A stretch of 64,000 nucleotides of DNA from an uncultured Candidatus Saccharibacteria bacterium (lineage in GTDB: Bacteria > Patescibacteriota > Doudnabacteria > UBA920 > 2-01-FULL-46-14). Position 1 is the stretch's first letter; each line of letters starts with the position of its first letter. The notes beneath the pieces were generated by a model that made no database searches, had not been told where the DNA came from, and saw only the letters and a program-made list of their open reading frames with translations. Of the stretch, positions 6,502 through 58,305 are shown in pieces. The translations under genes and the position numbers were made by a program. The stretch lies in assembly GCA_964360335.1 (NCBI GenBank), contig CAYHVH010000001.1, positions 23,426-87,425 on the forward strand. Direction: 5' to 3'.

Positions 6502-9276
6502 TTACACGGCTTGCCGTGTCATCTCTTCCCAATTATCGCCGAACTTGGCTTCCACGACGAGGGGAACTTTGAGTTTATAAATATTCTGCATGATTTTGGT
6601 AATTTTTCCGGCATAGTCATCAACTTTCTTTTCGGCTATTTCAAACACCAGCTCATCGTGAACCTGTAAGAGCAACCGGCAATCCTCGCGAGACGTCAAA
6701 TTTTCCTCCGCCAGTTTGTTCATCGCCAGTTTGATAATATCCGCCGAAAGCGATTGAAACGGCATGTTGATGGCCGCTCGTTCAGCAGCGGCGCGAACTG
6801 GCCACTGCGAAGAATTAATCTCGGGGAGATACCGGAGTCGCCCGAGTTCGTTTTTGACGTAGCCCGAGCGGCGCGTTTCCCCAACTATTTCCTCAAGGTA
6901 GTGAGTCAAGCTGTGATAGGTTTCGAAATATTTATCGATAAAATCTTGGGCTTCGCCTTGGGACACTCCTTTGATCCGGCTCTTGAGACCATAAGCGGAA
7001 AGGCCGTAGAGTACCCCGAAATTTATGGTCTTGGCATCTCGGCGCATTTCCGGGGTAATTTCGACCTCTCCTCCAGCTCCTCCCCTCGCCAGGGGAGAAG
7101 GGAGGGATTGAAAAATCTCGCGAGCTGTTGCTTCGTGAATGTCGCCGCCTTCGTGAAAAACTTTAATCATTTTCTCGTCGCCCGACAAATGGGCGGCCAG
7201 ACGAAGCTCAATCTGGGAGTAGTCCACGGACAGCAATTTATACCCTGTTTCGGCAACGAACGCCCCGCGGATTTTTCGACCAAACTCGGTGCGGATCGGA
7301 ATGTTCTGGAGATTCGGTTCGCTGGAGGACAATCGCCCGGTGGCAGTAACTGTCTGGTTAAAACTTGTGTGTAGCCGCCGCGTTTGAGGACTAACCAAAT
7401 CCGGCAAGGCATCTAGATAAGTATTTTTAAGTTTCGTTAATTCCCGCCATTCCGATATCAAATCAATAATCGGATGCAATCCTTTGAGCTTCTCGAGTTC
7501 CGTGGCCGCCGTGGACAGGCCGGTTTTGCCTTTTTTGAGCTCCTCGGTGGGAATCCCCAATTTCTCAAATAATATCTGTTTTAGCTGGATCGGGCTGCCG
7601 ATGTTAAATCTCTCGCCCGAAAGCCGGTAAATCTTCTGTTCGAGTTTCGAAATCTCCGCCGTGGCCTCGGCCGACAACTCCTTCAAGCACGACGGATTGA
7701 CCTTTACTCCCCAGCGTTCCATTTCCGCCAAAACTCTCACCAGCGGCATTTCGATCTCATAAAAAATTTTCTCTAAATCTTTACTTCTTAGCTCTTTTTC
7801 CAGTTTTTGTTTTAGCCGGAAAGTGTAGTCCACATCCTCGCAACAGTAAGCCGCGACCTCTCGGACCGGCACTTCGGCCATGCTAATCTCTTTTTTGCCT
7901 TCGCCAATCAAACTTTTAATCGGGGTTTTCCGGAAGCCAAACTCGGTAAAACTTAGGGTGTCCAAATCGAAATTCCGCGCCCCGGGGTTTAAAAGATAGG
8001 CGGCAATCATCGTGTCAAAAAACTCTCCTCCCAAAATCACTCCGGCCTTTTGCAAAATCAAATAATCATACTTGAGATTATGGCCGATTTTCAGAACTTC
8101 CGGATTCTGCAAAATTTCCGTGAGGGCCGGGGAAATCATCGCCGCCGGCAGGTAAAAGGCCCGGTTTTCTTGCCACGCCAACCCGAGGCCGAGAAGCTCA
8201 GCCTGCATCGGGTGAACCGAGGTCGTTTCGGTATCAATAGCGATTTGTTTCTGCCTCTCAAGCTCAGTAATGATGCTTTGGAATTTTTTCGGCGTATCAA
8301 GGAGCTGATAGTCAAATTCCTCCTCGCCCCCTCTGCTCCCTCGAGCTCTACTTAGGGCAGGCTCATGAGGGGAGTGGGGGATGTCAGTCTTTGGCAGTTT
8401 ATCCAAAAGTGAACGGAACTCCAGCTCCTGAAAAAGTTTAAAAACTTTCTGTTCATCATAAGCCAGAAGCCGGGCCTGGGTTAAATCCAGTTTCACCGGG
8501 AGGTTTTTGACGATTGTTGCCAATTTTTTGGAAATTTCCGCATCCGCCCGGTGTTCCAGAAGCAGTCGAGCGACGCGCGGCTTGAGCGCCGAGTGGTCTT
8601 TGCCGACTAAATATTTATAAATTCCTTCCAAGGTCTTAAATTTTTGCAGGAGCTCGGTCGCGGTTTTTTCCCCGATGCCTTTGACCCCGGGAATGTTATC
8701 CGAAGGATCACCGCGCAGGGCTTTAAAATCTAGAAGTTCCTCGGGTCTGAGGCCATATCGCTCCCGAACCGCCCCCACGTCATAAAGTTTGGTTTCGGTC
8801 AAGCCTTGCTTAGGAGCATAGACTTTCACCCGTTCGTCTACTAATTGCAGGGTGTCCAAATCCCCGGTTAAAATCACAGTATCCAAATCTTCCTGCTTCC
8901 GGGCTTTTTCGGCCAGAGTGCCAATCAAATCATCAGCTTCATAACTTTCCAGTTCATAGACTGGAAGATTAAAAGCTCTGACCAATTCTTTGACGCGGGG
9001 AATTTGCTCATAAAGTTCGGCGGGGGCTTTAATTCTTGTTGCCTTATAAGGCTCATAAATTTTTTCCCGGAAAGTTGGCGCCGGAAAGTCAAACGTCACT
9101 GCCACGTACTCGGGCCGCAGTTCTTTGAGGGCTTTCAAAAACAACAGGGCAAAACCGTAAACGCCGTTTACTGGCTCGCCCTTTTTGGTGGACAGGTGAG
9201 GAATCGCGTGAAAGCCGCGGTGGACCAAAGCATTGCCGTCTACCAATAATAAAACTGGTTTATCTTTGCTGGACAT
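6502..9276 (-). CDS. polA: DNA polymerase I
   Basis: 924 aa. 5'-3' exonuclease, 3'-5' exonuclease-like and polymerase domains (motif RRDAKTINFGVLYG, and the motif-C region SQIELRLAAHLSGDE). Two in-frame repeat insertions. Confidence 0.95.
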   Translation of the reverse strand: MSSKDKPVLLLVDGNALVHRGFHAIPHLSTKKGEPVNGVYGFALLFLKALKELRPEYVAVTFDFPAPTFREKIYEPYKATRIKAPAELYEQIPRVKELVRAFNLPVYELESYEADDLIGTLAEKARKQEDLDTVILTGDLDTLQLVDERVKVYAPKQGLTETKLYDVGAVRERYGLRPEELLDFKALRGDPSDNIPGVKGIGEKTATELLQKFKTLEGIYKYLVGKDHSALKPRVARLLLEHRADAEISKKLATIVKNLPVKLDLTQARLLAYDEQKVFKLFQELEFRSLLDKLPKTDIPHSPHEPALSRARGSRGGEEEFDYQLLDTPKKFQSIITELERQKQIAIDTETTSVHPMQAELLGLGLAWQENRAFYLPAAMISPALTEILQNPEVLKIGHNLKYDYLILQKAGVILGGEFFDTMIAAYLLNPGARNFDLDTLSFTEFGFRKTPIKSLIGEGKKEISMAEVPVREVAAYCCEDVDYTFRLKQKLEKELRSKDLEKIFYEIEMPLVRVLAEMERWGVKVNPSCLKELSAEATAEISKLEQKIYRLSGERFNIGSPIQLKQILFEKLGIPTEELKKGKTGLSTAATELEKLKGLHPIIDLISEWRELTKLKNTYLDALPDLVSPQTRRLHTSFNQTVTATGRLSSSEPNLQNIPIRTEFGRKIRGAFVAETGYKLLSVDYSQIELRLAAHLSGDEKMIKVFHEGGDIHEATAREIFQSLPSPLARGGAGGEVEITPEMRRDAKTINFGVLYGLSAYGLKSRIKGVSQGEAQDFIDKYFETYHSLTHYLEEIVGETRRSGYVKNELGRLRYLPEINSSQWPVRAAAERAAINMPFQSLSADIIKLAMNKLAEENLTSREDCRLLLQVHDELVFEIAEKKVDDYAGKITKIMQNIYKLKVPLVVEAKFGDNWEEMTRQAV
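7061..7106. repeat. Family-A element in frame in the polA fingers region
   Basis: TCGACCTCTCCTCCAGCTCCTCCCCTCGCCAGGGGAGAAGGGAGGG. Encodes SLPSPLARGGAGGEVE immediately upstream of the RRxxKxxNFG O-helix. Confidence 0.65.
8318..8385. repeat. Degenerate family-A-like palindromic insert in the polA interdomain linker
   Basis: CCCCCTCTGCTCCCTCGAGC...GAGGGGAGTGGGGG. Encodes HSPHEPALSRARGSRGGEEE. Confidence 0.4.
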
Positions 9277-15663: not shown

Positions 15664-15698
15664 CGGCCAAATCAAACTAATCTCCAAATTTCCTTTCG

Positions 15699-15726
15699 TA
15701 AAATACCCGCCATGGCGGGTATTTTA
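15699..15726 (+). terminator. Perfect palindrome TACCCGCCATGGCGGGTA flanked by A/T runs; a bidirectional intrinsic terminator after pepA
   Basis: AAAATACCCGCCATGGCGGGTATTTTAC. Confidence 0.6.
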
Positions 15727-15802
15727 CAACATAAGTCCATATTGTCTACGTTTTTATGTAATTACATAATGTTGTAGACAAGCGAATTTAGCAAAAAGTA
15801 AA

Positions 15803-15846: not shown

Positions 15847-16731
15847 CTACCCCGGCCAATCAGAGTAATCCCAGCCATCTGCAAGGGGAAGGTGTATGTT
15901 GTGTCCGTGGAGAGATTTTGTCGAAAGCTCAAGTCTGTTAAAGTCATTAACTTCTGCCTGAAGGGGCACCCATTGTACTGCAAATCCTTCTTGCTTGAGG
16001 CGGTTGATTTTCCGAGGGTTATTCGTGGCGGCAATCAGACCGATTTTTGTGATATCGAAGTGTTTGAGGATTACCATCTGATCTTCCAGCTCGTCCCACT
16101 CCGGACGGCTGGAAATTCTGACAAACGGCTCCCACCAGCGGTCTATCTTGGCCGGGTCGGGGTCAAGGCCTTTTCGAATGGCGACTATTTCCGCCATTGT
16201 ATCAATCAGCGCGTGGTTCCTCGGCCCCAGTCCTTTTCCAACATGATGCAGAGCGAGAATAATCATCCCGGGGTGACCTTCTCCCCAGCTGTTGGAAACC
16301 CGCTGCTTTGCCATCTCGAACTGATCACCGCAATCACACGTTACCGCCCCTTCAACAATGCCATTAAGGCACATCGATTGGAGACGAACGACTACTGCCT
16401 CGGTTTGGAGGCTGCTGTCATTCCCCAGCCAAAGCACCCGATATTCCCGCTCTGGATGATAACAATAACCAGCGATTTCCGGTGGCTGGCTGTCCCTTTT
16501 CGCAACGTCTGACCCTCCCCAAAAACGGAAATGGGCCTTATTGAACAAGACCGCCCTTTCCTCACGACCCCCCAAGCGGCCGAGCGACCACCATTTCCGA
16601 TGACTTTCTGATCGTCGCAACCGCAACCACTCGTGATAGGGCCCAATCATCTCGAAGCCTTGCTCTTGGTTGGTCACAATACCCTCTAGCTTACCCCAAA
16701 AATCCTGACTGCCCCCCTTATTGTCACTCAT
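15847..16731 (-). CDS. GTP cyclohydrolase II (RibA)-family protein with an N-terminal extension
   Basis: 294 aa. VRLQSMCLNG...CDCGDQFE matches the RibA zinc site (HSECLTG...CDCGFQ). GMIILALHHVGKGLG matches GILLYHRQEGRNIG. AATNNPRKINRLKQEGF matches LTNNPKKVEILTEAG. Confidence 0.6.
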   Translation of the reverse strand: MSDNKGGSQDFWGKLEGIVTNQEQGFEMIGPYHEWLRLRRSESHRKWWSLGRLGGREERAVLFNKAHFRFWGGSDVAKRDSQPPEIAGYCYHPEREYRVLWLGNDSSLQTEAVVVRLQSMCLNGIVEGAVTCDCGDQFEMAKQRVSNSWGEGHPGMIILALHHVGKGLGPRNHALIDTMAEIVAIRKGLDPDPAKIDRWWEPFVRISSRPEWDELEDQMVILKHFDITKIGLIAATNNPRKINRLKQEGFAVQWVPLQAEVNDFNRLELSTKSLHGHNIHLPLADGWDYSDWPG

Positions 16732-16829
16732 TGGGTGTCCTCCTTAATGATTTCGAACATTCGATTCTAGCTGAAACTTACAAACTAGTCAATATTAACC
16801 GACTTCTCAATCTTTTAAACATCAAGTGT

Positions 16830-16885
16830 TGACTTATTTTAGCCAAAAATCTATACTATAATTGTTGTCGGATATTACCGACAAT
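16830..16885 (+). promoter_or_regulatory. Sigma-70-like promoter (TTGACT-N17-TATACT) followed by a 20-bp palindromic operator TTGTCGGATATTACCGACAA overlapping the TrmB start; related half-site at ~16772-16790
   Basis: Read directly from the sequence. The second site CTAGTCAATATTAACCGACT shares the ATATTA(A)CCGAC core. Confidence 0.5.
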
Positions 16886-17653
16886 ATAACGGAAAGCTCC
16901 TACATGCCCCTTGAAATAGATTTGAAACAATTTGGTTTTGACGAGAAAAAAGCCAGGATTTACCTGGCAGTCTTAGAGCTGGGTGAGGCAAAAGCAGCCG
17001 AGGTTGCCAAAAAGTCCGGGATAGAAAGACCAACGTGTTATGACATTTTAAATAAACTGGTCCAAGATGGACTTATTAGCTTCTTCGATAAAAGAGGAGT
17101 CAAGCATTTCGTGGCCGAGGACCCAGAAAAAATCCAAGTCCGGCTCGCAGAAAAAGAAAGGGCTCTTAATCAATTATTGCCGGAATTAAAATCGGTTTAT
17201 AATAGCCTAAAAACAAAACCCAAAATCAAATTCTTTGAAGGCCTTGCGGGAATTAAAACAATCCTGGAAGACACGCTTACTCCCCACGATAAACAGCTCT
17301 TGGGCATTTTATCAATGCGGGATCTCTATGAAATTCCGGGGAAAGAATTTATGGACAACTATGTTAAGAGGAGAATTGAAGCAAAAGTTAAACTCCGGGT
17401 TATTCGGTCAAGGATTAAAGAGGTTGGGGAGACTTGGCCTACTAATCCAAAAGAATACCGAGAATTGCGCTACGCTCCGGAAAAATTATCCTTCCCCGTA
17501 ACAATCTACATTTATGATAATAAGGTTGGAATAATCGGCACCAAAAAAGAAAACTTCGGCATGCTCATTGAGTCAGAGGAATTTTTTGAAACCTTCAAGA
17601 ATCTATTCGAAGTTTTGTGGCTCGTATCAAAAGCTGGGCCGACAAAAGATTAA
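16862..17653 (+). CDS. TrmB-family transcriptional regulator (winged-HTH)
   Basis: N-terminal TrmB HTH (GFDEKKARIYLAVLELGEAKAAEVAKKSGIERPTCYDILNKL). The real start may be the internal Met (MPLEID). AT-rich gene. Confidence 0.7.
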   Translation: MLSDITDNITESSYMPLEIDLKQFGFDEKKARIYLAVLELGEAKAAEVAKKSGIERPTCYDILNKLVQDGLISFFDKRGVKHFVAEDPEKIQVRLAEKERALNQLLPELKSVYNSLKTKPKIKFFEGLAGIKTILEDTLTPHDKQLLGILSMRDLYEIPGKEFMDNYVKRRIEAKVKLRVIRSRIKEVGETWPTNPKEYRELRYAPEKLSFPVTIYIYDNKVGIIGTKKENFGMLIESEEFFETFKNLFEVLWLVSKAGPTKD

Positions 17654-17682: not shown

Positions 17683-17717
17683 AGGAGACAGACTACAACG
17701 CGGTCTGTCAGCGCTAA
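17683..17717 (-). repeat. 36-bp hairpin repeat copy 2; terminator of the minus-strand OMP-like gene
   Basis: Identical to 15803-15838. On the minus strand the hairpin is followed by TCCTTTTTAT. Confidence 0.7.
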
Positions 17718-18295
17718 AAACGAACAGTGGTGATGACGTAGGTCCGGAAGAAACGCGGCTCGCCTTGGTTGCGGAAATGGTAAGTCCCAGTTACCCAAAG
17801 GGTAACAGGACCTCGGTTTACGAGCCGAAAGCTGAGTCGCGAGCCACCGCCGTAGGAATCACGCCCACGCTTGTGAAGGTTTTCCGTCTCCACCCCAATC
17901 TTCCATCTGTCGCTTAACCGATAGTCAAATATGACGACTTCGGAAAAACTCCTGCGACTGGAAACGGGATACAACTCAAGGTAGAGATTGGCGCGTTTGC
18001 CGAAATCCCGGTTGAAACGGAAATTGAGCTGCCACTGGTGTCCCTTGGTGCTCCACTGCCGCTGGACGAGTGTCTCGAGCCACCAGTTATTGCGCTTGTA
18101 TCCCAGTCCGCCGAAGAGGTTGATGTTGTCTGGCTGCGCCTGCCGTACATTGCCAATCATCCACCCTGCAAGAAACCAGTTCTCGCCCAGCTTTTTGGTG
18201 ATATGCACTGGCGTCCGCAACTGAACAACATGATCCTGGGCCAAGAGGGGAGAGCCAAAAAGAAGAGCGAGTATCAGCAGCGTTGCTTTGCCCAT
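17714..18295 (-). CDS. Secreted beta-barrel-like protein (OmpW/OMP-beta-barrel-like), 193 aa
   Basis: Signal peptide MGKATLLILALLFGSPLLAQ, alternating amphipathic beta-strand pattern, and a C-terminal aromatic residue (..TTVRF). Confidence 0.4.
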   Translation of the reverse strand: MGKATLLILALLFGSPLLAQDHVVQLRTPVHITKKLGENWFLAGWMIGNVRQAQPDNINLFGGLGYKRNNWWLETLVQRQWSTKGHQWQLNFRFNRDFGKRANLYLELYPVSSRRSFSEVVIFDYRLSDRWKIGVETENLHKRGRDSYGGGSRLSFRLVNRGPVTLWVTGTYHFRNQGEPRFFRTYVITTVRF

Positions 18296-18395
18296 TATTC
18301 CTCCTTGACTTAACCTTTGACAGATTAAGGGGGGAGCATATATTATCTATATGGAGTGGTCAATACCACCACGAGGTGATAATTAACACCACAAA

Positions 18396-19148
18396 ATGTA
18401 TCAAGAAACGTTTGAGAGCTTAGGTTTAAGCCCCAATGAAGCGAAAATCTACGAAGCCCTGGTGGAAAAAGGGGAGTCCTCGGTAAGCGGGGTGGCGGTT
18501 GCTGCAGGCGTGCACCGCCGCAATGCCTACGATGCCATTCGGCGCCTCATTGATAAGGGCCTGTGCTTTGAAATCTTTTCTTCTGGAGAAAATCGATACA
18601 ATGCGGTCGATCCGGATAAACTCACTGAACTTGTGGCCGAGAGGCAGCAAAAATTAGAAAGTATTCTTCCGGAGCTAAAAAAGAAGTTTACCAAACGCAT
18701 TGCCCCCGAGGAAGCCTACATTTACCGGGGGTACGAGGGCCAAAAAAATATCTGGCGCGATTTGCTGCGGGTCGGGGGCGAGAGCTACGTGGTGGGGGCA
18801 AAAGGCGGATGGTTTGAGCCGAACTTGCAGGCAAGCCGTATCGAATTTTTCAAAGAAGCCAACCGAAAAAAAATCAAATTCTTTCAGCTTTTCGACCATG
18901 AAATAAAAATTCAATTTCCGCGGTTCGTCAAAGACTATCCCGGGACGCTTAAATCTCGGTATTTGCCCAAGGAATACTCCACTAATTCGCTGATTCATGT
19001 CTTTGGGGACTACTTCATTACCTATACGGGCTTGGAACTTATGAGGCTAAGTGAAAAAACAGTATTTTTTGTGATCAAAAGCCGCGACCTCGCGGAAAGC
19101 TACCGGACCTGGTTTTGGTACATGTGGGAACAATCTTCGGAAAAGTAG
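18396..19148 (+). CDS. TrmB-family transcriptional regulator (second paralog)
   Basis: N-terminal HTH (LGLSPNEAKIYEALVEKGESSVSGVAVAAGVHRRNAYDAIRRLIDKGL). Upstream TTGACA-N16-TATATT and palindromes GTGGTCAATACCAC / GGTGATAATTAACACC. Confidence 0.7.
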   Translation: MYQETFESLGLSPNEAKIYEALVEKGESSVSGVAVAAGVHRRNAYDAIRRLIDKGLCFEIFSSGENRYNAVDPDKLTELVAERQQKLESILPELKKKFTKRIAPEEAYIYRGYEGQKNIWRDLLRVGGESYVVGAKGGWFEPNLQASRIEFFKEANRKKIKFFQLFDHEIKIQFPRFVKDYPGTLKSRYLPKEYSTNSLIHVFGDYFITYTGLELMRLSEKTVFFVIKSRDLAESYRTWFWYMWEQSSEK

Positions 19149-23997: not shown

Positions 23998-24235
23998 TGA
24001 CCTTCAGAATTTTTGCCTCATGGAGCCGGAGTTCATTGGCCATCACGGCGCTTCGGGTTTTGACGGTGAGGGTTTTTTTCTGGAGACTGACTGGCCTGAT
24101 CGCCTCGGATTCGGGGATCAAATTTTTTATTTCCGCCCGATAGAGATCGAAAATTCGCACGATTTCCAGCTGCCGCGAAAGCTCGTCTTTGCGGCTGAAT
24201 TTGCCCTGGAGCGTTTCCCCTAATTTTTTAAACAT
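23945..24235 (-). CDS. DUF721 (DciA-like) protein downstream of recF
   Basis: 96 aa. Conserved position after recF in the dnaA-dnaN-recF cluster. Confidence 0.55.
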   Translation of the reverse strand: MFKKLGETLQGKFSRKDELSRQLEIVRIFDLYRAEIKNLIPESEAIRPVSLQKKTLTVKTRSAVMANELRLHEAKILKVINQTVGHQAVKRVIYRF

Positions 24236-25358
24236 TTATCGCGGTCGAAGTTACTGCTCCCTGATTGACGGCATAGACCTGCGCCCTTTTCGGCAAAAAA
24301 TCCTGAACCTCTTCGAGATGAATAGTAGTGAGAAATACCTGTTTCAGGATGGACAAAAAGCCGGTTAATTTTTTCTGGTGCTCAAAATCAAACTCGGAAA
24401 AGATATCATCCAAAAGCATGATTGGGGATTCTCCGGTTTGCTCCTCCAGATATTGCTTTTCCGTAAACTTTAGCGCCAGGGTCAAGCTCCGCATCTGCCC
24501 ACGAGAAACAAACCCAACCACGTCCTTGCCCTGAAGCAGGGTCGCAAAGTCATCGCGGTGCGGCCCGAGAAGAGTGGTACCGCGCTGCCGTTCGGTTTGG
24601 CGCAAACTGCGAAGCTTTTCGAGAAATTCCTGCTTGTTCACCGCTCCAGACATACGATAAACAAACTTCACTTCCGTAAGTTCGGGGGATAGGGAAGCGA
24701 TAATGGCGGGAAGGGAAGCGTTCAAATATTTTAAGAGGTTGTCTCGGTGCTGACAGATGAGGCTGCCAAACTCCGCCAATTTTTCATCCCAAATGTCCAT
24801 CTCTGGAAGCCCGAGTTTTTCATCATCGATACGCTCCCGGCCTTGACCGGAAATCTTTTGCCAGAGCTCATTGCGCTGCCGTAAACTTTTTTCATACTGC
24901 TGTTGAGCATATCGATATTGCCGAGTACCGAGCGACAGGGTTTCGCTTAGAAACCGCCGCCGGTTGCTAGGGGACCGCGTTAAGATATTCAAGTCCTGGG
25001 GCACGAAACTGACAATGGGCAGGATCCCGGCATACTTGCTGCGCGGTGTTTCTTGGCCATTAACTTTGAGTTTGTAAATTGGCCGTGTCTCTCTATATTC
25101 TGCGTAAACCTCCTGAACGACCGGTTCCCGGTTTTCCAACTCTATTTTTGCGCGCAAAAAATTTCGCCCTTCCAAAAACAACTGCCCAAATTTGCTTTCG
25201 GGAAACTTTCGCAGCGTGCTCCCGAAATATATACCCTCCAAAAAATTGGTTTTTCCGGCACCATTCGGCCCCGTTAAAACTACAAAGCCCTGATCGAGAT
25301 GCAAATCAAGGCTTTGAAAGTTTCGAAAGTTTTGGAATAGGAGCCGGGCAATATGCAT
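24228..25358 (-). CDS. recF: DNA replication and repair protein RecF
   Basis: 376 aa. Walker A GPNGAGKTN and the SMC-like signature. Confidence 0.9.
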   Translation of the reverse strand: MHIARLLFQNFRNFQSLDLHLDQGFVVLTGPNGAGKTNFLEGIYFGSTLRKFPESKFGQLFLEGRNFLRAKIELENREPVVQEVYAEYRETRPIYKLKVNGQETPRSKYAGILPIVSFVPQDLNILTRSPSNRRRFLSETLSLGTRQYRYAQQQYEKSLRQRNELWQKISGQGRERIDDEKLGLPEMDIWDEKLAEFGSLICQHRDNLLKYLNASLPAIIASLSPELTEVKFVYRMSGAVNKQEFLEKLRSLRQTERQRGTTLLGPHRDDFATLLQGKDVVGFVSRGQMRSLTLALKFTEKQYLEEQTGESPIMLLDDIFSEFDFEHQKKLTGFLSILKQVFLTTIHLEEVQDFLPKRAQVYAVNQGAVTSTAINV

Positions 25359-25360
25359 TT

Positions 25361-26455
25361 TCAGATCTTGATCGGCATGACGATATAGAGGTAGTTGTCC
25401 CTCCCTGCCGGTACCAAGGCCGCAGGAGACGAAGAGTTGATGACTCTTAAAGAAACCTGCTCGTCTGGTAAATTATTCAGGCACTCCAGGAGATAGCGGT
25501 AGTTGAAAACTGCCGCATTTTTTTCGCCCGTTAATTCCCCGAACAGGCGAATTTCGCTCCCTCCCACCTGGACCGCTTGGGACTTGATTACCACCTGCTT
25601 CCCTGGCGGATTGAGTTCCAGCTCAATGTTGTTGGTGTCCCCGGCGAAAAGGCTTGCCGCCTTCAAAGCCTGTACAAATTCGCCCCGCTTGAGCTCTGCC
25701 TGGGTTGTGAAGTTTTGAGGGACTATCTGTTTGTAATCTGGATACTGGCCCTCGATCAGACGCGAAATAAGTTCAACCTCCTCGGTTCTCAAACAAATTT
25801 GCCCTTCCTTGAGAAAGACCTCGATTGTTCCCTCCCCCATGCTTCTACTTGCTTCATTGACGGCGCGGGTTGGGACAATCACCTGGCGGTTGCTACCCAC
25901 CTCTTCCCCAAGTGGGATTTTTACTTCTGCCAAGCGGTAGCGGTCGGTGGTAGCCAGGGTTAGCCCTTTCCCCTCAAAACTAAACAACACCCCAGAAATT
26001 TCCGGCTGGGTTTCGGAAAAGGCCGCGGCAAATCCTACCTCCCCAACTCCTTCCCGAAGCGCTTTCCCTGAGAGTTTGGTATAAACCCCGCCTTCCCCCC
26101 CGGGAATGAGGGGAAAGTCTTCTACCCCCAAGCCGTTGATATGAGTTTTGGCGTTTTCCCCTTCCAGCAACAGGTCGGTTTTTTCTGTGGAGATAGTGAG
26201 CTTTTCCGTTAGCAAATTAGCCACGAGTTCGTTGAGTAATTTCGCCGGTACCGTAAGCTCCCCGTCTTCTACTACTTTCCCCCCCACCCAAGTATTAACC
26301 GCCATCTCTAGATTTGTGGTGGTGAGTTTGAGGCGACCCTTCTCTGTGCGGAGCAAAATATTGTTGAGAATGGGTAGGGCGTTCCCTCCCCCAATAATCC
26401 GCGAGCAGATCTGTAAGCCAGCATTGAGGTTTTTTTTTGTACACTGCATTTTCAT
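25361..26455 (-). CDS. dnaN: DNA polymerase III beta sliding clamp
   Basis: 364 aa, three-domain clamp architecture, immediately downstream of dnaA. Confidence 0.9.
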   Translation of the reverse strand: MKMQCTKKNLNAGLQICSRIIGGGNALPILNNILLRTEKGRLKLTTTNLEMAVNTWVGGKVVEDGELTVPAKLLNELVANLLTEKLTISTEKTDLLLEGENAKTHINGLGVEDFPLIPGGEGGVYTKLSGKALREGVGEVGFAAAFSETQPEISGVLFSFEGKGLTLATTDRYRLAEVKIPLGEEVGSNRQVIVPTRAVNEASRSMGEGTIEVFLKEGQICLRTEEVELISRLIEGQYPDYKQIVPQNFTTQAELKRGEFVQALKAASLFAGDTNNIELELNPPGKQVVIKSQAVQVGGSEIRLFGELTGEKNAAVFNYRYLLECLNNLPDEQVSLRVINSSSPAALVPAGRDNYLYIVMPIKI

Positions 26456-26499
26456 AAAAGTGATTGTTTCTAAAGAAGAAGTTTTAGTAAGGAGTAATT

Positions 26500-26660
26500 A
26501 TAGTAATTGCTGGGGGAATGTGGGAAAGGGGGAGATTCTGCTGCTAGCGCCCGTCCCCAGTTCGCGGCCGGTGGGGAAGGTGGTGACAGGGGTGGGGAGA
26601 GATTGGGGGGGAAGGAAACAAGGACAGGATCTTTCCCCCAATCCCCCCACAGTTAATCCA
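26500..26660. repeat. G-run-rich palindromic spacer between dnaA and dnaN (GGGGA/TCCCC hairpins), possibly related to family A
   Basis: GATTGGGGGGGAAGG...CTTTCCCCCAATCCCCCC (roughly 13-bp stem), plus GTCCCCAG...GGTGGGGAAGG and GGGGTGGGGAGAG. Confidence 0.4.
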
Positions 26661-28017
26661 TATAGATTCGGTTGGTAATCAGGCTTATTTCATGTTTGAG
26701 GGCTTCCTTTTCCTTTCCTACCCTTTGGACTTTGTCAATGGCGTGGATGACTGTGGTGTGGTCGCGCCCGCCGAAAATTTCCCCTATCATCGGTAGACTG
26801 GTCTCGAGTTCTTTCCTGATAATATACATCGCCACCTGGCGGGGGAGGACGTACTCTTTTTTGCGGGATTGTTTGACGAGGTCGTCAATTGTCACATTGT
26901 AGAAGTCCGCCACGACCTCCATAATTTTTTTTGCCGAGGCCATCCGTTTTTTTGGAGGGAAAACAATGTTGGCAAGGATATTTTTCACCTTGTCCAAGGT
27001 TGGGGAGGTGTTGTTGAGCTGACAAAAAACCATCAGGCGGTTAAGCGAGCCCTCGAGTTCGCGAATGTTAGTCTCCACGGTTTGGGCAATATACTCAAGC
27101 ACCCCTGGCCCAACATCGTAACCTCGCTCTTTGGCTTTTGAGCGCAAGATTGCAAGCCGAGTTTCGAAGTCCGGCGGCTGGACGTCTGCAATCATCCCCC
27201 ATTCAAAGCGGGAAACCAGCCGCTCTTCAATGGCAGGGATTTCCTTTGGTAAACGGTCCGAAGATAGCACTATTTGTTTGTTGATTTGATGTAAGGCGTT
27301 GAAGGTGTGAAAAAATTCTTCCTGGGTTTGTTCCTTGCCTGCCAAAAATTGTACGTCATCGATGAGGAGGACGTCTACCCCCCGATAGAGATTTTTAAAA
27401 GTTTCCCCTTTGTTGTAGCGAACCGCTTGAATGAATTCATTGGTAAATTTTTCCGTGGTGACATACAAAACTTGCTTGGCCACCCCACTATTTAAAAAAT
27501 CATTCCCGATCGCCTGCAGGAGGTGGGTTTTTCCCAGACCGACCCCGCCGTAAATGAACAACGGGTTGTAAGCCCTTCCCGGATTTTTGGTTACTCCCTG
27601 AGCGGCGGCAACGGCCAATTCGTTGTTGCCACCAACAATAAAGTTCAAGAAAGTGTATTTTGGGTTAAGCCCCGTGCTGAGGGAGGAAGACTTGACGGTT
27701 GGGGTATGTTCGGGCGAAGCGGGAAGTGACACAATCCTGGGAGGAGGTTCGGCCGCCCGGCGGTTATAGCCACCGGTAATTTGGTATTCGATTTGTTTGA
27801 TTTCGGGGTTAACAGCGCGGATAGCCCGCAGAATTGCCTGATGGAACTTGTTCATCAGCCATTCTTTGGTAAAGGCGTTGGGCACACCAATAACCACTTT
27901 TCCCGAACTTTGTTCCAAAATTGCGGTGTTTTTAAACCAGGTGGTGAAGCTCGCCTTGGACAGGGAGAGCTCAAGGTTTCCCAGAACCGCCTGCCAGATT
28001 TGTTTAGTGGAGTTCAC
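26653..28017 (-). CDS. dnaA: Chromosomal replication initiator DnaA
   Basis: AAA+ motifs (GGVGLGKTHLL, LIDDVQF) and a C-terminal DnaA-box-binding domain. The real N-terminus (IWQAVLGNLELSLSKASFTTWF) implies a GTG start near 28017. The longer ORF extension to 28233 is rejected. Confidence 0.85.
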   Translation of the reverse strand: MNSTKQIWQAVLGNLELSLSKASFTTWFKNTAILEQSSGKVVIGVPNAFTKEWLMNKFHQAILRAIRAVNPEIKQIEYQITGGYNRRAAEPPPRIVSLPASPEHTPTVKSSSLSTGLNPKYTFLNFIVGGNNELAVAAAQGVTKNPGRAYNPLFIYGGVGLGKTHLLQAIGNDFLNSGVAKQVLYVTTEKFTNEFIQAVRYNKGETFKNLYRGVDVLLIDDVQFLAGKEQTQEEFFHTFNALHQINKQIVLSSDRLPKEIPAIEERLVSRFEWGMIADVQPPDFETRLAILRSKAKERGYDVGPGVLEYIAQTVETNIRELEGSLNRLMVFCQLNNTSPTLDKVKNILANIVFPPKKRMASAKKIMEVVADFYNVTIDDLVKQSRKKEYVLPRQVAMYIIRKELETSLPMIGEIFGGRDHTTVIHAIDKVQRVGKEKEALKHEISLITNRIYMD

Positions 28018-28211
28018 TTTTGTACCCCATTCTTTTTGCTTATGTTTTTCCCTTGCTGCTATTCTAACAGAATGGTTATCAACATGTAAAATAATAGGAA
28101 ATCCCCAGGAATAAGCCAAAAAAAGGATTGTATGTGGATAGGGTGTGTAAAACCAGTGCATCAAATTTTTGAATTGGCCAAATTCGATTTGGGAAGGTAT
28201 AATTAGAAAAG
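28018..28211. promoter_or_regulatory. AT-rich dnaA/rpmH divergent intergenic region with DnaA-box-like 9-mers (candidate oriC / dnaA promoter)
   Basis: TTATCAACA and TGTGGATAG are each one mismatch from the TTATCCACA box. The region is AT-rich. Confidence 0.4.
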
Positions 28212-46212: not shown

Positions 46213-48270
46213 ATGGCTGACCTTGTGAAACTCAAAGAACTCGCCAGGCTCGTTCGTTACTATATTCTGGTCTCGACCACGGCCGCGGGGTCCGGGCACC
46301 CAACATCTTCGCTGTCTGGCGTGGAACTGATGACGGCATTGATGTTTGGCGGCTATTTTCGCTTTGACTTGAATCGTCTGGGATACGCAAACAATGACCG
46401 GCTGATTTTCTCCAAAGGCCATGCCTCGCCCCTCTTCTATGCGCTGTGGGCAGCGGCTGGCGCGCTGACGGAAAAAGAGCTTTTGACTTTGCGCAAATTT
46501 GGCAGCCCTTTGGAGGGGCATCCTACCCCGGCATTTCCCTATACCGAAGCGGCGACAGGCTCTTTGGGACAAGGGTTGTCAATTGGCGTGGGCATGGCCC
46601 TTAATGCCAAGCTTGACCGGCTTCCCTATCGCACTTATGTGCTTTTGGGGGACAGTGAAATGGCCGAGGGCTCGCAATGGGAGGCGATTCAGCTCGCCGC
46701 GTACTATAAACTTGATAATTTGGTCGGCGTTCTCGATGTCAATCGTTTGGGTCAACGAGGGCAGACGATTTACGGGCATGATATTAAAGCTTATCAGAAA
46801 CGCATCGCGGCGTTCGGGTGGAAGACTATAGTCGTGAATGGGCATAATTTGAATGAGATTTTGAAAGCGTACAAACAGGCGACCCCCTCTTCATCTCCCC
46901 CTATCCCGTTTGACGGGACAGGGGGAGAAAAGAGAGGGGGTGGAAGGCCGGTGATGATCATTGCCAAAACCATTAAAGGTAAAGGAGTTTCATTTATCGA
47001 AAACAAAGAAGGCTGGCATGGGAAGGCGCTTTCCCCGGAGGATTTGAGGAAGGCACTACGAGAATTGGGGAAAGTCGACAAGAAGATGCGAGGAGAGATG
47101 GCAAAGCCGGAGAGAATTAGTAGACCGGAGACAGTAGATAGTAGATCGGAAAGCAAAGAAAAAATTAATTACAAAATCGGAGAAGAGGCGGCAACAAGGA
47201 AGGCTTACGGTAACGCCCTAGTCAGGATTTATCCGAAGTTTCCGAATATCGTAGTCCTCGACGCCGAGGTTTCCAATTCAACTTACGCGGAGATATTCAA
47301 GGAAAAATATCCGGACCGGTTTTTGGAGATGTTTGTGGCGGAGCAGAATATGGTGGGTGCGGCTCTTGGTCTTTCGCGGCGCGGCAAGATCCCGTTTGTT
47401 TCGACCTTTGCCGCGTTCCTGACGCGCGCTTTTGACCAAATCCGAATGAGCCAGTATTCGGCCGCCAACATCAAGTTTGTGGGCTCGCACGCCGGGGTGT
47501 CCATCGGCGAGGACGGGCCGTCGCAGATGGGCCTCGAGGATTTGGCAATGTTTCGCAGTATTTTAGGAAGCGTGGTTTTGTATCCTTCGGATGCGGTTTC
47601 AACCGATAAGCTTGTGGAAGCGGCAGCTAAGCACAAAGGCATTGTCTATATCAGAACAACGCGAATGGAAACCCCGGTGCTTTATTCCCCGGGGCAGGAG
47701 TTCAAAATCGGCGGGAGTAAAGTTTTGCGCCATAGCCGGAAAGACGTGGCGACAGTGCTGGCGGCCGGGATAACATTGCATGAAGCGTTGGCCGCTTATG
47801 AAGAACTCAAGAAGCAAGGGGTTTTGATTCGGGTGATTGACTTGTACAGCATCAAACCGATTGATAAAAAGACATTGACGCAGGCTGCCAAAGAAACGGG
47901 AGCGATAATCACGGTCGAGGACCATTATCCCGAGGGCGGGATTGGGGAAGCGATTAGAAGCGCTCTTTCTGACCTCCCTCCCCAAAGCATGGGGAGGGAT
48001 AAAGGGAGAGGTTTTCCGCCAGCCCGCCCCGCTTCGCTTGGCGAGGCCGGGGAGGCGGATCCGCCTTGGGCAGAGAAACTCCCTGGTAAAACCGACCTCT
48101 CTCCTTCTCTCCCCATCACCTGGGGAGAGGGTAGGATTATCTCTTTAGCGGTGCGCAAAATGCCGCGAAGCGGCAAACCGCAGGAGCTTTTGGATTATGA
48201 AGAGATATCGCGCGATGCTATTATTAAGGAAGTAAAGAGAATTGTTTCTAAATCGTCACCTCGAATTTAA
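46213..48270 (+). CDS. tkt: Transketolase (full length) carrying 2-3 in-frame repeat insertions
   Basis: ThDP-binding motifs (GHPTPAF..., LLGDSEMAEGSQWEA), pyrimidine-binding and C-terminal domains. 685 aa. Confidence 0.9.
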   Translation: MADLVKLKELARLVRYYILVSTTAAGSGHPTSSLSGVELMTALMFGGYFRFDLNRLGYANNDRLIFSKGHASPLFYALWAAAGALTEKELLTLRKFGSPLEGHPTPAFPYTEAATGSLGQGLSIGVGMALNAKLDRLPYRTYVLLGDSEMAEGSQWEAIQLAAYYKLDNLVGVLDVNRLGQRGQTIYGHDIKAYQKRIAAFGWKTIVVNGHNLNEILKAYKQATPSSSPPIPFDGTGGEKRGGGRPVMIIAKTIKGKGVSFIENKEGWHGKALSPEDLRKALRELGKVDKKMRGEMAKPERISRPETVDSRSESKEKINYKIGEEAATRKAYGNALVRIYPKFPNIVVLDAEVSNSTYAEIFKEKYPDRFLEMFVAEQNMVGAALGLSRRGKIPFVSTFAAFLTRAFDQIRMSQYSAANIKFVGSHAGVSIGEDGPSQMGLEDLAMFRSILGSVVLYPSDAVSTDKLVEAAAKHKGIVYIRTTRMETPVLYSPGQEFKIGGSKVLRHSRKDVATVLAAGITLHEALAAYEELKKQGVLIRVIDLYSIKPIDKKTLTQAAKETGAIITVEDHYPEGGIGEAIRSALSDLPPQSMGRDKGRGFPPARPASLGEAGEADPPWAEKLPGKTDLSPSLPITWGEGRIISLAVRKMPRSGKPQELLDYEEISRDAIIKEVKRIVSKSSPRI
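46880..46945. repeat. Family-A-type nested palindrome in frame in tkt
   Basis: CGACCCCCTCTTCATCTCCCCCTATCCCGTTTGACGGGACAGGGGGAGAAAAGAGAGGGGGTGG. Encodes TPSSSPPIPFDGTGGEKRGGG. Confidence 0.65.
47970..48140. repeat. Composite family-A insertion (three palindromic units, ~171 bp) in frame in the tkt C-terminal domain
   Basis: TGACCTCCCTCCCCAAAGCATGGGGAGGGATAAAGGGAGAGG ... GGCGGATCCGCC ... CCGACCTCTCTCCTTCTCTCCCCATCACCTGGGGAGAGGG. Encodes a 57-aa loop. Confidence 0.7.
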
Positions 48271-48298
48271 TTCGGGAACCAGGATTAAAACTTCTGGA

Positions 48299-48324
48299 TT
48301 CCCCGATTAAATCGGGGAATGACA
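48299..48324. repeat. Family-B repeat, copy 2 (partial: TTCCCCGATTAAATCGGGGAATGACA) upstream of glpX
   Basis: Shares the ...CGGGGAATGACA terminus with copies at 47-132 and 49281-49325. Confidence 0.5.
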
Positions 48325-48328
48325 AAGA

Positions 48329-49279
48329 ATGCAAATGGATCGAAATTTGGCTTTAGAATTTGTGCGCGTCACCGAAGCGGCGGCAATTGCCGCCTCCTCC
48401 TGGATTGGCCGCGGCGACAAAAACGCCGCTGATCAGGCCGCGGTTGACGAGATGCGCGCGCGGTTCAACCAGATTGATTTTGCCGGTACGATCGTTATCG
48501 GCGAGGGAGCCAAGGACGAAGCTCCGGAGCTTTACACCGGCGAGAAAGTCGGCACCGGCAAAGGCCCGGAAATGGATCTGGCCGTTGATCCTCTGGAAGC
48601 CACGGACAGTGTGGCCCACGGCCGCTACAACGCGATTTCCGTGATTGTCGCCGGGCCCAAAGGGTCACTCCTTTCTGCGCCGGATACTTATATGAATAAA
48701 CTGGCCGTAGGCAAAGCCGCTGCTAAAGTCGTGGATTTGGATTTTCCCGTAAAACAGAATATTGAGCGCGTGGCCAAGTCCTTGGGCAAAGACATTGGGG
48801 AAATTACGGTCGTGGTTTTGGACCGCGAGCGGCATGAGGGGTTGATCAAGGAAATTCGCGCTGCCGGCGCGCGGGTGCGCACCATCACTGACGGCGACGT
48901 GGCGGGCGCTATCGCTCCGTGCCTGCCCGAGTCGGGGATCGATATGCTTTTGGGAATTGGCGCCTCGACAGAAGCAGTGCTCGCCGCCGCGGCCATGAAA
49001 ATCCTGGGCGGCGAGCTTTTCTGCCGGTTTGCGCCTAAGAATGAGAAAGATCAGAAAGCAATTTTGGAGGCCGGGATCAAAGATCTAAATAAAGTCTACT
49101 CTGCTGAGGACTTGGCAAAGGGCAAGCAGTTAACCTTTACTGCCACGGGCGTGATTGACGGGCCGCTTTTAGAGGGAGTGCGGTTTGCGAAGCACCGCAT
49201 CATCACCCATTCGGTCGTGATGCGCGGGTCGTCTGGTACAATACGGTACATCACCACTCATCATCATACTACTAAGTAA
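48329..49279 (+). CDS. glpX: Fructose-1,6-bisphosphatase class II (GlpX)
   Basis: 316 aa. GlpX N-terminal signature (RVTEAAAIA..GRGDKNAAD.AAV). Confidence 0.85.
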   Translation: MQMDRNLALEFVRVTEAAAIAASSWIGRGDKNAADQAAVDEMRARFNQIDFAGTIVIGEGAKDEAPELYTGEKVGTGKGPEMDLAVDPLEATDSVAHGRYNAISVIVAGPKGSLLSAPDTYMNKLAVGKAAAKVVDLDFPVKQNIERVAKSLGKDIGEITVVVLDRERHEGLIKEIRAAGARVRTITDGDVAGAIAPCLPESGIDMLLGIGASTEAVLAAAAMKILGGELFCRFAPKNEKDQKAILEAGIKDLNKVYSAEDLAKGKQLTFTATGVIDGPLLEGVRFAKHRIITHSVVMRGSSGTIRYITTHHHTTK

Positions 49280-49280
49280 T

Positions 49281-49325
49281 TGTCATTCCGGCCAAAGTTT
49301 ACCCCGCACTTGATGCGGAATGACA
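49281..49325. repeat. Family-B repeat, copy 3 (TGTCATTCCGGCCAAAGTTTACCCCGCACTTGATGCGGAATGACA)
   Basis: Near-identical to the 5' half of copy 1, plus the terminal inverted repeat. Confidence 0.6.
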
Positions 49326-49369
49326 GGCAGGTACAAGTAAGTATTAATTACGTAATTAAATAAGTATTT

Positions 49370-50284
49370 ATGAAAAACTTAGGCTATAGTAAACCGCTTT
49401 TCATCCTTGCTTTTGATCACCGCTCGTCCTTTTTTAAGATGTTCGGCTACAAAGAGCCGCTGACCGCGGAGCAGGCTAGAGAAATTAGCGAGGCTAAGTG
49501 GCTGGTCTATGAGGGGTTTAAACAGGCCGTGGCCAAAGACTTTCCGCCGAAAGAAAACGCGGGAGTGTTGGTGGATGAACAGTTTGGGAAAAAGGTACAC
49601 CGTGAGGCTCAACCCGCCGGTTATTTGACGCTTTTGACTCAAGAGAAAAGCGGGCAAGATGAGTTTGACTTTGAGTATGGCGAACAGTTTGCCGAGCATA
49701 TTGAAAATCTTAAACCCAGATTTGCCAAGGTCCTGATTCGCTACAACCCGGAAAGTGATAAAGAGATGAATTTAAGGCAGCGAGAAAGGCTTAAGATTTT
49801 GAGTGGCTGGTGCCATGAGAAAGGTTACAAGTTTTTGATAGAGCCACTCATTCCGGCGACAGAGCAACAGCTTGCCGGGGTCGGAGGGGACCAGGCGCGT
49901 TATGATAACGAACTAAGGCCCGGGCTAATGGTCAAAATGATAGCCGAGCTGCAGGCAGGTGGAGTGGAGCCGGATATCTGGAAGATTGAAGGCCTTGAGG
50001 ATCCGAAACATTACGAAGAGGTGGTGCGCCAAGCCCGGACCGGCGGCCGGGGAGGAGTCTCGGCCGTGGTTTTGGGTCGCGGCGCGGATGCCGCGCAGGT
50101 GGAGAAATGGCTCAAGGCCGGAGCGAAAGTGAAAGGGATTATCGGGTTTGCCATCGGCCGGACGATTTTCTGGGAACCACTCTTGTCGTGGAAAGAGGGG
50201 AAGACGAGTCGAGAGGAAACCGTCAGGAAGATCGCGGAGAATTATAAACATTTTTACAAGGTGTTTGTTAGTAGCACAAAATAG
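49370..50284 (+). CDS. Class I aldolase of the DeoC/LacD superfamily (DUF2090-type; putative fructose-bisphosphate aldolase)
   Basis: 304 aa. FILAFDHRSSF N-terminal motif typical of LacD/DUF2090 TIM-barrel aldolases. Sits between glpX and tal. Confidence 0.6.
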   Translation: MKNLGYSKPLFILAFDHRSSFFKMFGYKEPLTAEQAREISEAKWLVYEGFKQAVAKDFPPKENAGVLVDEQFGKKVHREAQPAGYLTLLTQEKSGQDEFDFEYGEQFAEHIENLKPRFAKVLIRYNPESDKEMNLRQRERLKILSGWCHEKGYKFLIEPLIPATEQQLAGVGGDQARYDNELRPGLMVKMIAELQAGGVEPDIWKIEGLEDPKHYEEVVRQARTGGRGGVSAVVLGRGADAAQVEKWLKAGAKVKGIIGFAIGRTIFWEPLLSWKEGKTSREETVRKIAENYKHFYKVFVSSTK

Positions 50285-50297
50285 TCTGAACCAGAAG

Positions 50298-50921
50298 TTG
50301 ATAGAGAATATTCACAAGTGTTTGCGTACGGTGGTTTCCCAATTTTATTACCGTCCATTTTTGTTTTTTAACGAAATCGGTTTTCATACTTACTGCTACG
50401 CAGTTTTCTATCGCAACCCCGTTTTCGCTAAACTTTTTACAACCCGTGACGGCAAAAACACCAACCTTATCCACCCTGAGTACGGTTCAATAAAAACTAA
50501 AATCGGCGGGAAGGGCAGGGCTTGGTATGATTTAGTTATCCTTAATCCCCGGTTCGTACAAGACAACGATCTTGAAAGAGTCGCCAACAATTATGGAACA
50601 GCGACGAGTTATAAACCGGATGACCTAATGGCGGTTCTAGAATTTAAGTACCTTAGATCTTCTTCTAAAGAATACGTTAGGCAACTGCAAAAAGATTATC
50701 ATTCCTTATCTAACGCTGTTGAAGCACTGAACAAATATATGATTGTTTTTGCCGATGTTAAAAGTCCTTTTGATTATTTTTCGGGTATGCAGTGGGACGA
50801 CCACACAAAACTCGTTTATACGGTTGTTGATTTTAGTCAAATTGGACGAAAGCAGATCAAAGTGCTTATTAAGCCTGATAATTTCTTAAAATTACCGGGA
50901 CAGTGGCTGGCGACGGTCTAA
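50298..50921 (+). CDS. Hypothetical protein in an AT-rich segment; start uncertain (TTG/GTG candidates, or internal ATG near 50628); possible PD-ExK-like motif
   Basis: Marked drop in GC. ...KPDDLMAVLEFKYL... is a PD-(D/E)xK-like pattern. Otherwise no recognisable family. Confidence 0.3.
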   Translation: MIENIHKCLRTVVSQFYYRPFLFFNEIGFHTYCYAVFYRNPVFAKLFTTRDGKNTNLIHPEYGSIKTKIGGKGRAWYDLVILNPRFVQDNDLERVANNYGTATSYKPDDLMAVLEFKYLRSSSKEYVRQLQKDYHSLSNAVEALNKYMIVFADVKSPFDYFSGMQWDDHTKLVYTVVDFSQIGRKQIKVLIKPDNFLKLPGQWLATV

Positions 50922-50930
50922 AAATGCCAT

Positions 50931-51827
50931 ATGAGGCCCTCAAATTTAAAAACCCGCATCTTTCTTGACTCTGGGGATCCGAACGAAACGCGTGAAGTCA
51001 TAAAGTTTCTCGGGTTTTTGGACGGTCAGACGACTAATCCCAGCTTAATTGCCAAGAACCCGGAAACGACCGGCAAGAAATTTTCCCAAAAAGAGATTTT
51101 GGAATTTTATAAAAAAGTCGTGGTTGAGGTTTCCGCTCTGATCCCCGCCGGTTCCGTATCAGTTGAGGTTTACGCTGACCCTTCGACAAGCTCAGGGGAT
51201 ATGTTAGAACAAGGTCGAGATTTTTTTTCTTGGATTCCAAACGCACACATCAAATTTCCGACAACCAAAGAGGGCCTGAAGGCCGCTGAAATTGCCGTTA
51301 AAGAAGGCATGCGCGTCAATTTGACTTTGTGCTTTTCCCAGGAGCAGGCGGCGGCCGTGTACGCGGCAACGAGGGGAGCAAAAAAAGGGCAGGTCTTTGT
51401 TTCGCCGTTTGTCGGGCGGCTGGATGATCGGGGGGAGAACGGGATGCAGCTCGTTGAGAATATTATCAAAATGTATCGGGCGGGAGACGGGCATGTGGAG
51501 GTGCTGACCGCGAGCGTACGGAATCTCAATCATTTGCAGTACGCAATTCAGCTCGGTTCCGACATCCTGACCGCGCTGTTGAAGGTTTTGAAGGAGTGGG
51601 CCGACTCCAATTTCCCTCCCCAGGCGTGGAGAGCCCCCTTCTCTATCCCTCCCCAGGCGAGGGGAGGGATTAAGGGAGAGGTCGAAACGGCAAAGGAGTT
51701 GAAGCCAATACCCTACCGCGAGGTTTCTCTTGACAATCCCTGGCAGGACTACGACATTCGTCATGAGCTGACCGACGTCGGCATTGAAAAGTTTGCCGCG
51801 GATTGGAACGCGCTTATCAAGCCATAA
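50931..51827 (+). CDS. tal: Transaldolase / fructose-6-phosphate aldolase family (TalC/MipB-type) with an in-frame repeat insertion
   Basis: DSGDPNE..., FPTTKEGLKAAE..., NLTLCFS motifs. 298 aa. Confidence 0.85.
   Translation: MRPSNLKTRIFLDSGDPNETREVIKFLGFLDGQTTNPSLIAKNPETTGKKFSQKEILEFYKKVVVEVSALIPAGSVSVEVYADPSTSSGDMLEQGRDFFSWIPNAHIKFPTTKEGLKAAEIAVKEGMRVNLTLCFSQEQAAAVYAATRGAKKGQVFVSPFVGRLDDRGENGMQLVENIIKMYRAGDGHVEVLTASVRNLNHLQYAIQLGSDILTALLKVLKEWADSNFPPQAWRAPFSIPPQARGGIKGEVETAKELKPIPYREVSLDNPWQDYDIRHELTDVGIEKFAADWNALIKP
51611..51685. repeat. Family-A element in frame in tal
   Basis: ...CCCTCCCCAGGCGTGGAGAG...CCCTCCCCAGGCGAGGGGAGGGATTAAGGGAGAGGTCGAA. Encodes FPPQAWRAPFSIPPQARGGIKGEVE. Confidence 0.7.
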
Positions 51828-51857
51828 AATAATATTCTTCGAACGGTATTTAACAAT

Positions 51858-58292: not shown

Positions 58293-58305
58293 GATCAACC
58301 AAAAG

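Follow-up and report, generated by a model that had tools for sequence, protein, structure and literature searches.

What does a gene for a protein resembling guanosine triphosphate (GTP) cyclohydrolase II do in a bacterium where no other gene for riboflavin synthesis stands near it? The question is raised by a 64,000-nucleotide (nt) stretch of contig CAYHVH010000001.1 (assembly GCA_964360335.1, positions 23,426 to 87,425, forward strand) from an uncultured Candidatus Saccharibacteria bacterium, placed by GTDB in the Doudnabacteria. This whole stretch is called the window here. The gene in question (its product is called the target) stands back to back with a gene for a regulator of the TrmB family. 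We found that the target keeps the fold and the zinc motif of the riboflavin enzyme RibA and that aspartate has replaced two of its active-site residues. Our preferred reading, to which we give a probability of about one half, is that the target is a zinc-dependent hydrolase under TrmB control, in which a re-tooled active site would serve a new chemistry or a new substrate. The two genes are:

15847-16731, minus strand: gene of the GTP cyclohydrolase II superfamily, 294 residues, divergent; the boundaries of the open reading frame (ORF) are exact.
16904-17653, plus strand: gene for a TrmB-family winged-helix regulator, 249 residues, divergent from the enzyme gene (PF01978, 57 bits against 25.6).

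The single Pfam match of the target is PF00925 (GTP_cyclohydro2), which covers residues 99-252 with 37.3 bits (gathering score 23.3), and the protein has the alpha/beta fold of RibA. A preliminary description of the window had named the gene an orphan of the RibA family, with a conserved zinc site and downstream blocks, and had allowed that a hidden Markov model might place it in a different fold. The search places it, as far as a profile match can tell, in the same fold, and the ORF on the minus strand is real. In the alignment the zinc motif is unbroken (C121-x2-G124-x7-C132-D-C134-G), with C121, C132 and C134 as the predicted ligands, and it fits the CX2GX7CXC motif described for the family (PMC10366380). 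Residues were counted column by column in the 148 best representatives that an exhaustive search of 1.84 billion clusters returned, and the zinc-motif columns are cysteine in 146-147 of these. The downstream blocks GKGLG, TNNPRK and K..GH are also present. Thus the family name stands in the sense of a lone member of the GTP cyclohydrolase II superfamily. It does not stand in the sense of the enzyme, since all curated NCBIfam RibA models failed on the target (45-56 bits against cut-offs of 148-764), among them TIGR00505 (53.9 against 205.85) and NF001591 (56.2 against 148), and since aspartate occupies the positions of Arg128 and Tyr105. The target is very probably not a RibA enzyme (EC 3.5.4.25).

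These two positions were located with the sequence of Escherichia coli RibA, which is 100% identical to PDB 2bz0 and served as a ruler in three alignments; its numbering is used for all RibA residues. Arg128 is replaced by Asp213 and Tyr105 by Asp177. Arginine occupies the Arg128 column in 144 of the 148 best representatives and tyrosine the Tyr105 column in 122 (methionine in seven), while aspartate is found in either column only in the target and its close homologue P0002. Tyr105 is said to form a hydrogen bond with the zinc-bound water and to be required for opening the ring and releasing formate. According to a review (PMC10366380), Arg128 is in contact with the alpha-phosphate and has been proposed as the nucleophile in pyrophosphate release.

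The target retains R49, S52, C54, C65, D66, C67, Q70, G93, G97, T149-N-N-P, K154 and the C-terminal K..GH of RibA. The other substitutions are H51 to Q118, E53 to M120, T56 to N123, D58 to I125, E92 to V164, R94 to K166, K101 to H173 and N118 to F203. These eight positions make up a RibA-type signature that was derived here from the RibA-type alignment, not taken from a publication; the target departs from it throughout (Q, M, N, I, V, K, H and F). In the alignment H51, E53, D58, E92 and K101 are near-invariant among RibA-type sequences, and several of them may bind the triphosphate and Mg2+. It had been proposed that a lone RibA-like enzyme could serve another GTP-derived pathway. This is doubtful, and GTP is probably not the substrate, because Arg128 and Tyr105 have become aspartate and H51, E53, D58, E92 and K101 are also replaced.

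The extra N-terminal domain of about 90 residues in the preliminary description was not borne out. In the AlphaFold model of the target (mean predicted local distance difference test score 79.7, predicted template modelling score 0.81), confident strands occur at residues 26-38, 59-70, 95-102 and 113-120, and the N-terminal strands align with those of RibA and of all members of the clade described below. Residues 26-38, 59-70 and 95-102 are thus, by the model, the ordinary N-terminal strands of the GTP cyclohydrolase II fold, to which a leader of about 25 residues and two insertions (39-58 and 71-94) have been added. Both insertions have low model confidence. The first is partly missing from P0002, yet the second is 71% identical between the two proteins.

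P0002 (268 residues, about 59-62% identical) is the sole close homologue and is encoded on a 1.2-kb Logan contig (locus L001). A word-indexed search of 5.8 billion proteins returned the target itself, P0002 and nothing further. The exhaustive search of 1.84 billion representatives added no match closer than an expectation value (E) of 3e-24, and target residues 1-85 found no match in either database. Between the two genes the rate of nonsynonymous substitution (dN) is 0.24 and that of synonymous substitution (dS) is saturated, and this comparison reveals purifying selection on the enzyme gene. Overall the two proteins are 59% identical in the block comparison, against 85% in the zinc motif, 93% in residues 154-181 (which include D177) and 82% in the TNNP block. 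Identity therefore peaks in the active-site blocks of RibA, which by this comparison argues for a functional pocket and not for decay. A strong ribosome-binding site (AAGGAGGA) precedes the ATG of the enzyme gene by 6 nt and is also kept in the gene for P0002, and the base composition of the enzyme gene agrees with that of the genome. Contigs from Hainich groundwater (well H51, 0.1-µm filter fractions) encode a protein identical to the target; Candidatus Patescibacteria (the Candidate Phyla Radiation, CPR) make up about 68% of such fractions at Hainich on average, with a range of 54-79% (PMC8672522). This sample origin and the relatives of the target suggest a CPR bacterium as the source.

Profile searches revealed an uncharacterised clade of PF00925 proteins of 205-235 residues, marked by R94K, K101H, T56W and N118Y/F. 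We call it 'GKG/His', a name coined in this analysis after R94K and K101H. The clade occurs in CPR bacteria, archaea and other organisms (P0194, P0154, P0159, P0166-P0173 and P0201 are examples), and none of its members reaches the RibA cut-offs. P0194, annotated as a hypothetical protein in Candidatus Jacksonbacteria RIFOXYA2_FULL_44_7, belongs to a subgroup in which Tyr105 has become asparagine. In the neighbour-joining tree, a long branch within the clade holds the target pair (100 of 100 bootstraps); in 70 bootstraps the pair falls inside the asparagine subgroup. The target has the clade markers K166, H173 and F203 (that is, R94K, K101H and an aromatic residue at N118). It lacks two further traits of the clade, with Asp213 instead of Arg128 and Asn123 instead of tryptophan at the T56 position. 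The pair appears in this tree as the most derived branch of the clade, at the end of a graded series that leads from RibA through the R94K/K101H proteins and the Tyr-to-Asn subgroup to the Asp/Asp pair. The literature search found no paper on the clade, on GTP cyclohydrolase II in CPR bacteria or on its link to TrmB.

The second part of the evidence concerns regulation. The preliminary description had proposed a regulated pair with a divergent TrmB gene and a palindromic operator, and this is upheld: the regulator matches PF01978, and the palindrome is unique in the window and conserved at L001. The start of the regulator, MPLE(I/T)DL, is kept at L001, where the TrmB protein begins MPLETDLEQFGF, so that TrmB of the window starts at the ATG at 16904 and not at the TTG at 16862. 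Around and between the two genes the following sites were found:

15698-15727, no strand: perfect palindrome with 15-nt arms, GTAAAATACCCGCCATGGCGGGTATTTTAC, from an inverted-repeat search, between the convergent pepA and the enzyme gene.
16764-16792, minus strand: enzyme promoter of the sigma-70 type, TTGACT-17 nt-TAGAAT (consensus scan, 10/12).
16788-16803, no strand: second operator-like site, GTCAATATTAACCGAC (GTC-N10-GAC), read from the sequence, overlapping the -35 box of the enzyme promoter.
16829-16857, plus strand: TrmB promoter of the sigma-70 type, TTGACT-17 nt-TATACT (consensus scan, 10/12), kept at L001.
16865-16884, no strand: perfect 20-nt palindrome, TTGTCGGATATTACCGACAA (TTGTCGG-ATATTA-CCGACAA), putative TrmB operator, unique in the window.

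The two intergenic promoters stand back to back. Among 100 shuffles there was no match to the 20-nt palindrome. It covers the transcription start of the TrmB gene, 3' of the -10 box and ahead of the start codon. The contig of P0002 carries the same palindrome with one central-base difference. The right half of the second site, ACCGAC, is identical to that of the main palindrome, and the -35 region of the enzyme promoter lies inside a block conserved with L001, where the second site reads GTCAATGCTAACCGAC (target/P0002 over window positions 16788-16803: GTCAAT(AT/GC)TAACCGAC); the rest of the intergenic region is poorly conserved. The TTGTC..GACAA operator is absent from the related loci L004 and L012, whose palindromes differ, and the operator sequence is thus, among the loci compared, specific to the close pair of target and P0002. 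These sites suggest that TrmB may repress its own gene and the enzyme gene, with relief by an effector. At the other end of the enzyme gene, the palindrome at 15698-15727 is probably a bidirectional terminator, in which case the enzyme gene would be monocistronic. Directly 3' of the enzyme stop codon, at 15742-15781, there is a 40-nt imperfect palindrome (TTGTCTACGTTTTTATGTAATTACATAATGTTGTAGACAA), the ends of which (TTGTC...GACAA) are similar to those of the TrmB operator.

Along its full length the adjoining TrmB shares 30% identity with the TrmB encoded beside P0154, and only 23% with its own paralogue 1.5 kb away. This paralogue (18396-19148, 250 residues) has a strong promoter (TTGACA-16 nt-TATATT, 18317-18344) and a palindrome (GGTGATAATTAACACC, 18375-18390). 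The G+C content of the first TrmB gene (16904-17653) is 0.40 (0.42 at third positions), much below that of its neighbours (about 0.52 and 0.6), which could reflect recent acquisition or a different selective regime. Between the two paralogues, on the minus strand (17714-18295), lies an ORF of 193 residues with a signal peptide (MGKATLLILALLFGSPLLAQ) and the end ...TVRF, for which no Pfam, NCBIfam or PADLOC match was found. The product resembles a small protein that is secreted or of beta-barrel type, which one would not expect in a presumably single-membrane CPR cell. It was considered as a conserved partner and rejected, being unrelated to the 193-residue ORF that precedes P0153. A defence-system reading was also rejected, as PADLOC gave no match for the enzyme or for this neighbour; the TrmB genes matched there through a generic helix-turn-helix domain only.

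Riboflavin genes and a flavin mononucleotide (FMN) riboswitch were found nowhere in the 64-kb window, in agreement with the earlier statement that no other such genes are visible there, and none of ten related loci has a rib gene. The gene is very probably a non-riboflavin gene, as had been supposed. What recurs in the related loci is a regulator. A divergent TrmB gene is found in the window and at L001, L004 and L012-15, and a divergent gene for a double winged-helix regulator at L008 and L016-18. P0194 is encoded by a monocistronic gene with a divergent TrmB, and P0201 and the archaeal P0159 have the double winged-helix regulator (328-329 residues). Relatives also lie within operons for ATP-binding cassette (ABC) importers (L004, L006, L007 and L009). 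Behind P0154, which has a divergent TrmB, come genes for a binding protein of the NMT1 type, a permease and an ATPase, while P0170, P0167 and P0173 are encoded by the last gene of operons with an SBP_bac_3 binding protein, a permease and an ATPase, and in one of these three loci a RidA-like gene follows the enzyme gene. P0153 adjoins xanthine-dehydrogenase-like subunits. At L007 (6141-7818) the enzyme-like gene of the importer operon is followed by RidA/RutC-like and haem-oxygenase-like genes (the latter a weak match to PF14518), and at L004 (8001-11301) by a gene for an NMT1/SsuA-type binding protein; the composition of both operons gives a hint that a heterocycle is taken up and processed. 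L004 also has, in the interval separating its TrmB gene from its enzyme gene, two GC-rich hairpins (7691-7770; ATTCCCGACTTGATCGGGAAT and TTCCCGCTTTCGCGGGAA) resembling repetitive extragenic palindromic elements.

Because Tyr105 and Arg128 are replaced and the pairing with a regulator is constant, the target probably has a different, regulated job from RibA. In the mechanism we propose, a remodelled GTP cyclohydrolase II fold would keep its active-site zinc and would no longer carry out the RibA reaction, in which GTP gives the diaminopyrimidinone phosphate DARPP, formate and pyrophosphate. We infer that the protein is catalytically competent and that it most likely performs a zinc-dependent ring opening or amide cleavage of an N-heterocyclic metabolite, nucleotide-like or otherwise, that is probably no nucleoside triphosphate. 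TrmB would occupy two sites, the palindrome at its own transcription start and the related sequence that covers the -35 box in front of the enzyme gene, and would repress both genes until a small-molecule signal releases it. A wider proposal is more tentative, and we hold it as possible without expecting it: the 'GKG/His' clade may be an unrecognised enzyme family of CPR bacteria and small archaea that uses zinc, in a new reaction, to open the ring of or deformylate a salvaged compound (a nucleotide, a nucleobase or a heterocycle resembling a vitamin), with the Asp/Asp protein as a further new activity and TrmB as a metabolite-sensing switch.

Several points weigh against the reading of the target as a re-tooled hydrolase. 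The substrate is a guess, and the binding proteins of the importers in related operons match generic families only, below cut-offs, and give no substrate clue. The Asp/Asp state occurs in two sequences only, and both the footprint and the selection estimate come from this one pair. The roles given to Tyr105 and Arg128 are those reported by Ren et al. 2005, and the review (PMC10366380) confirms that of Arg128 only. The alignment of Asp213 adjoins an insertion, although three independent alignments agree on the placement. Finally, the loss of both key residues of RibA also fits a non-catalytic ligand-binding protein. Such a pseudoenzyme would have a structural zinc, would bind a small molecule or nucleotide and would perhaps work together with TrmB. 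However, the zinc cysteines, R116, S119, Q137, the GKG loop and TNNP are retained and are the most conserved parts between the two homologues, and the substituted aspartates sit in highly conserved blocks; these conserved pocket residues and aspartate blocks suggest a pocket that is re-tooled and not decaying, which makes the pseudoenzyme rather unlikely in our judgement.

If the pocket is active, it may have kept part of the RibA chemistry on a guanine nucleotide, either opening the ring without deformylation, in the manner of GTP cyclohydrolase III, or acting on guanosine monophosphate or guanosine with no pyrophosphate to release. The intact zinc site could activate water, the Tyr105 position is asparagine in the nearest subgroup and methionine in seven of the best representatives, and CPR bacteria depend on nucleotide salvage; moreover, paralogues of Streptomyces coelicolor with a Tyr-to-Met change reportedly stop at the formamido product (Spoonamore et al. 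2006). Yet the target has lost Arg128 and most of the positions that may bind the triphosphate (H51, E53, D58, E92 and K101), and there is no nearby downstream gene to use such a product, so we consider this unlikely. That the target is instead a very diverged true RibA, with the other rib genes elsewhere in the genome, is suggested by Pfam and by the automatic JGI annotation of relatives, which both say 'GTP cyclohydrolase II', and a solitary ribA is known in some bacteria such as E. coli. Scores of 54-56 bits against cut-offs of 148-206, aspartate in place of both Arg128 and Tyr105, the lack of any FMN riboswitch or rib gene in the 64 kb and of rib genes in the ten related loci, and the label 'hypothetical protein' that NCBI gives to the Jacksonbacteria relative make it very improbable. 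The same holds for a UTP (uridine triphosphate) cyclohydrolase of the Urc1/UrcA type for pyrimidine breakdown, even though the structure 7eev of that enzyme is the best full-length structural match of the target; only in structural coverage does it surpass RibA. The clade profile A3, which includes the target, matches 2bz0 with E 4e-33 against 1e-6 for 7eev; the PF12471 N-terminal domain is missing (no second Pfam match at E up to 0.1); the His, Glu, Tyr and Arg lost in the target are present in 7eev, which is without the TNNP that the target keeps; and the search of the window gave no gene for urea amidolyase or uracil phosphoribosyltransferase.

The remainder of the window contains dnaA, dnaN, recF and dciA, cell-wall genes, a sugar-phosphate cluster and several TrmB paralogues. 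The first four form a cluster of the replication-origin type (24228-28233), and the minimum of the cumulative GC skew lies at about 24-30 kb. The sugar-phosphate cluster (46213-52916) encodes transketolase, a GlpX fructose-1,6-bisphosphatase, a DUF2090/DeoC-type aldolase, transaldolase and a bacterial-type phosphoglucose isomerase. rpoC (58054-62205, plus strand) is without rpoB before it; upstream of it are four small ORFs on the opposite strand (55368-57649) with no family match.

What is new here is a variant active site on a known fold, which offers a lead to a new activity in CPR metabolism. Automatic labels such as 'GTP cyclohydrolII / RibA' would lead one to ascribe the first step of riboflavin synthesis, in error, to reduced CPR genomes, while the pairing with a regulator and the importers in relatives suggest a conditional salvage or catabolic function. 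With one enzyme, one repressor and two candidate operators, the system is compact and testable.

Compared with known systems, the target differs from RibA (EC 3.5.4.25; PDB 2bz0 and 4rl4; TIGR00505, NF001591), to which it is about 20-25% identical, by its 25-residue leader, the two N-terminal insertions and an insertion of about 9-13 residues after the Tyr105 helix, and its partner is a regulator gene, not a rib gene. With the 'GKG/His' clade it shares R94K, K101H, N118F/Y and a divergent TrmB or winged-helix regulator, and with the asparagine subgroup the insertion after the Tyr105 helix. The clade members, 28-36% identical to it, nevertheless retain Arg128, tryptophan at the T56 position and mostly Tyr105, whereas the target is Asp/Asp, lacks the tryptophan and carries the N-terminal insertions. 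The X-domain of RibBX (PDB 6mnz) is fused to RibB, unlike the target, and is without the zinc cysteines that the target retains. The regulator resembles the TrmB family in its N-terminal winged helix (PF01978) and in the palindromic site at its promoter. Its scores fall far short in all curated models for the archaeal TrmB, TrmBL1 and TrmBL2, and in contrast to the archaeal TrmB it is a bacterial protein of about 250 residues without adjoining sugar-transport genes. A precedent for the recruitment of a GTP cyclohydrolase II homologue to a different nucleotide is UTP cyclohydrolase of the URC pyrimidine-degradation pathway (PDB 7eev and 7ej3; Zhang et al., ACS Catal 2021, listed as reference 14 in PMC12507026), which has 425 residues with a large N-terminal domain, against 294 in the target.
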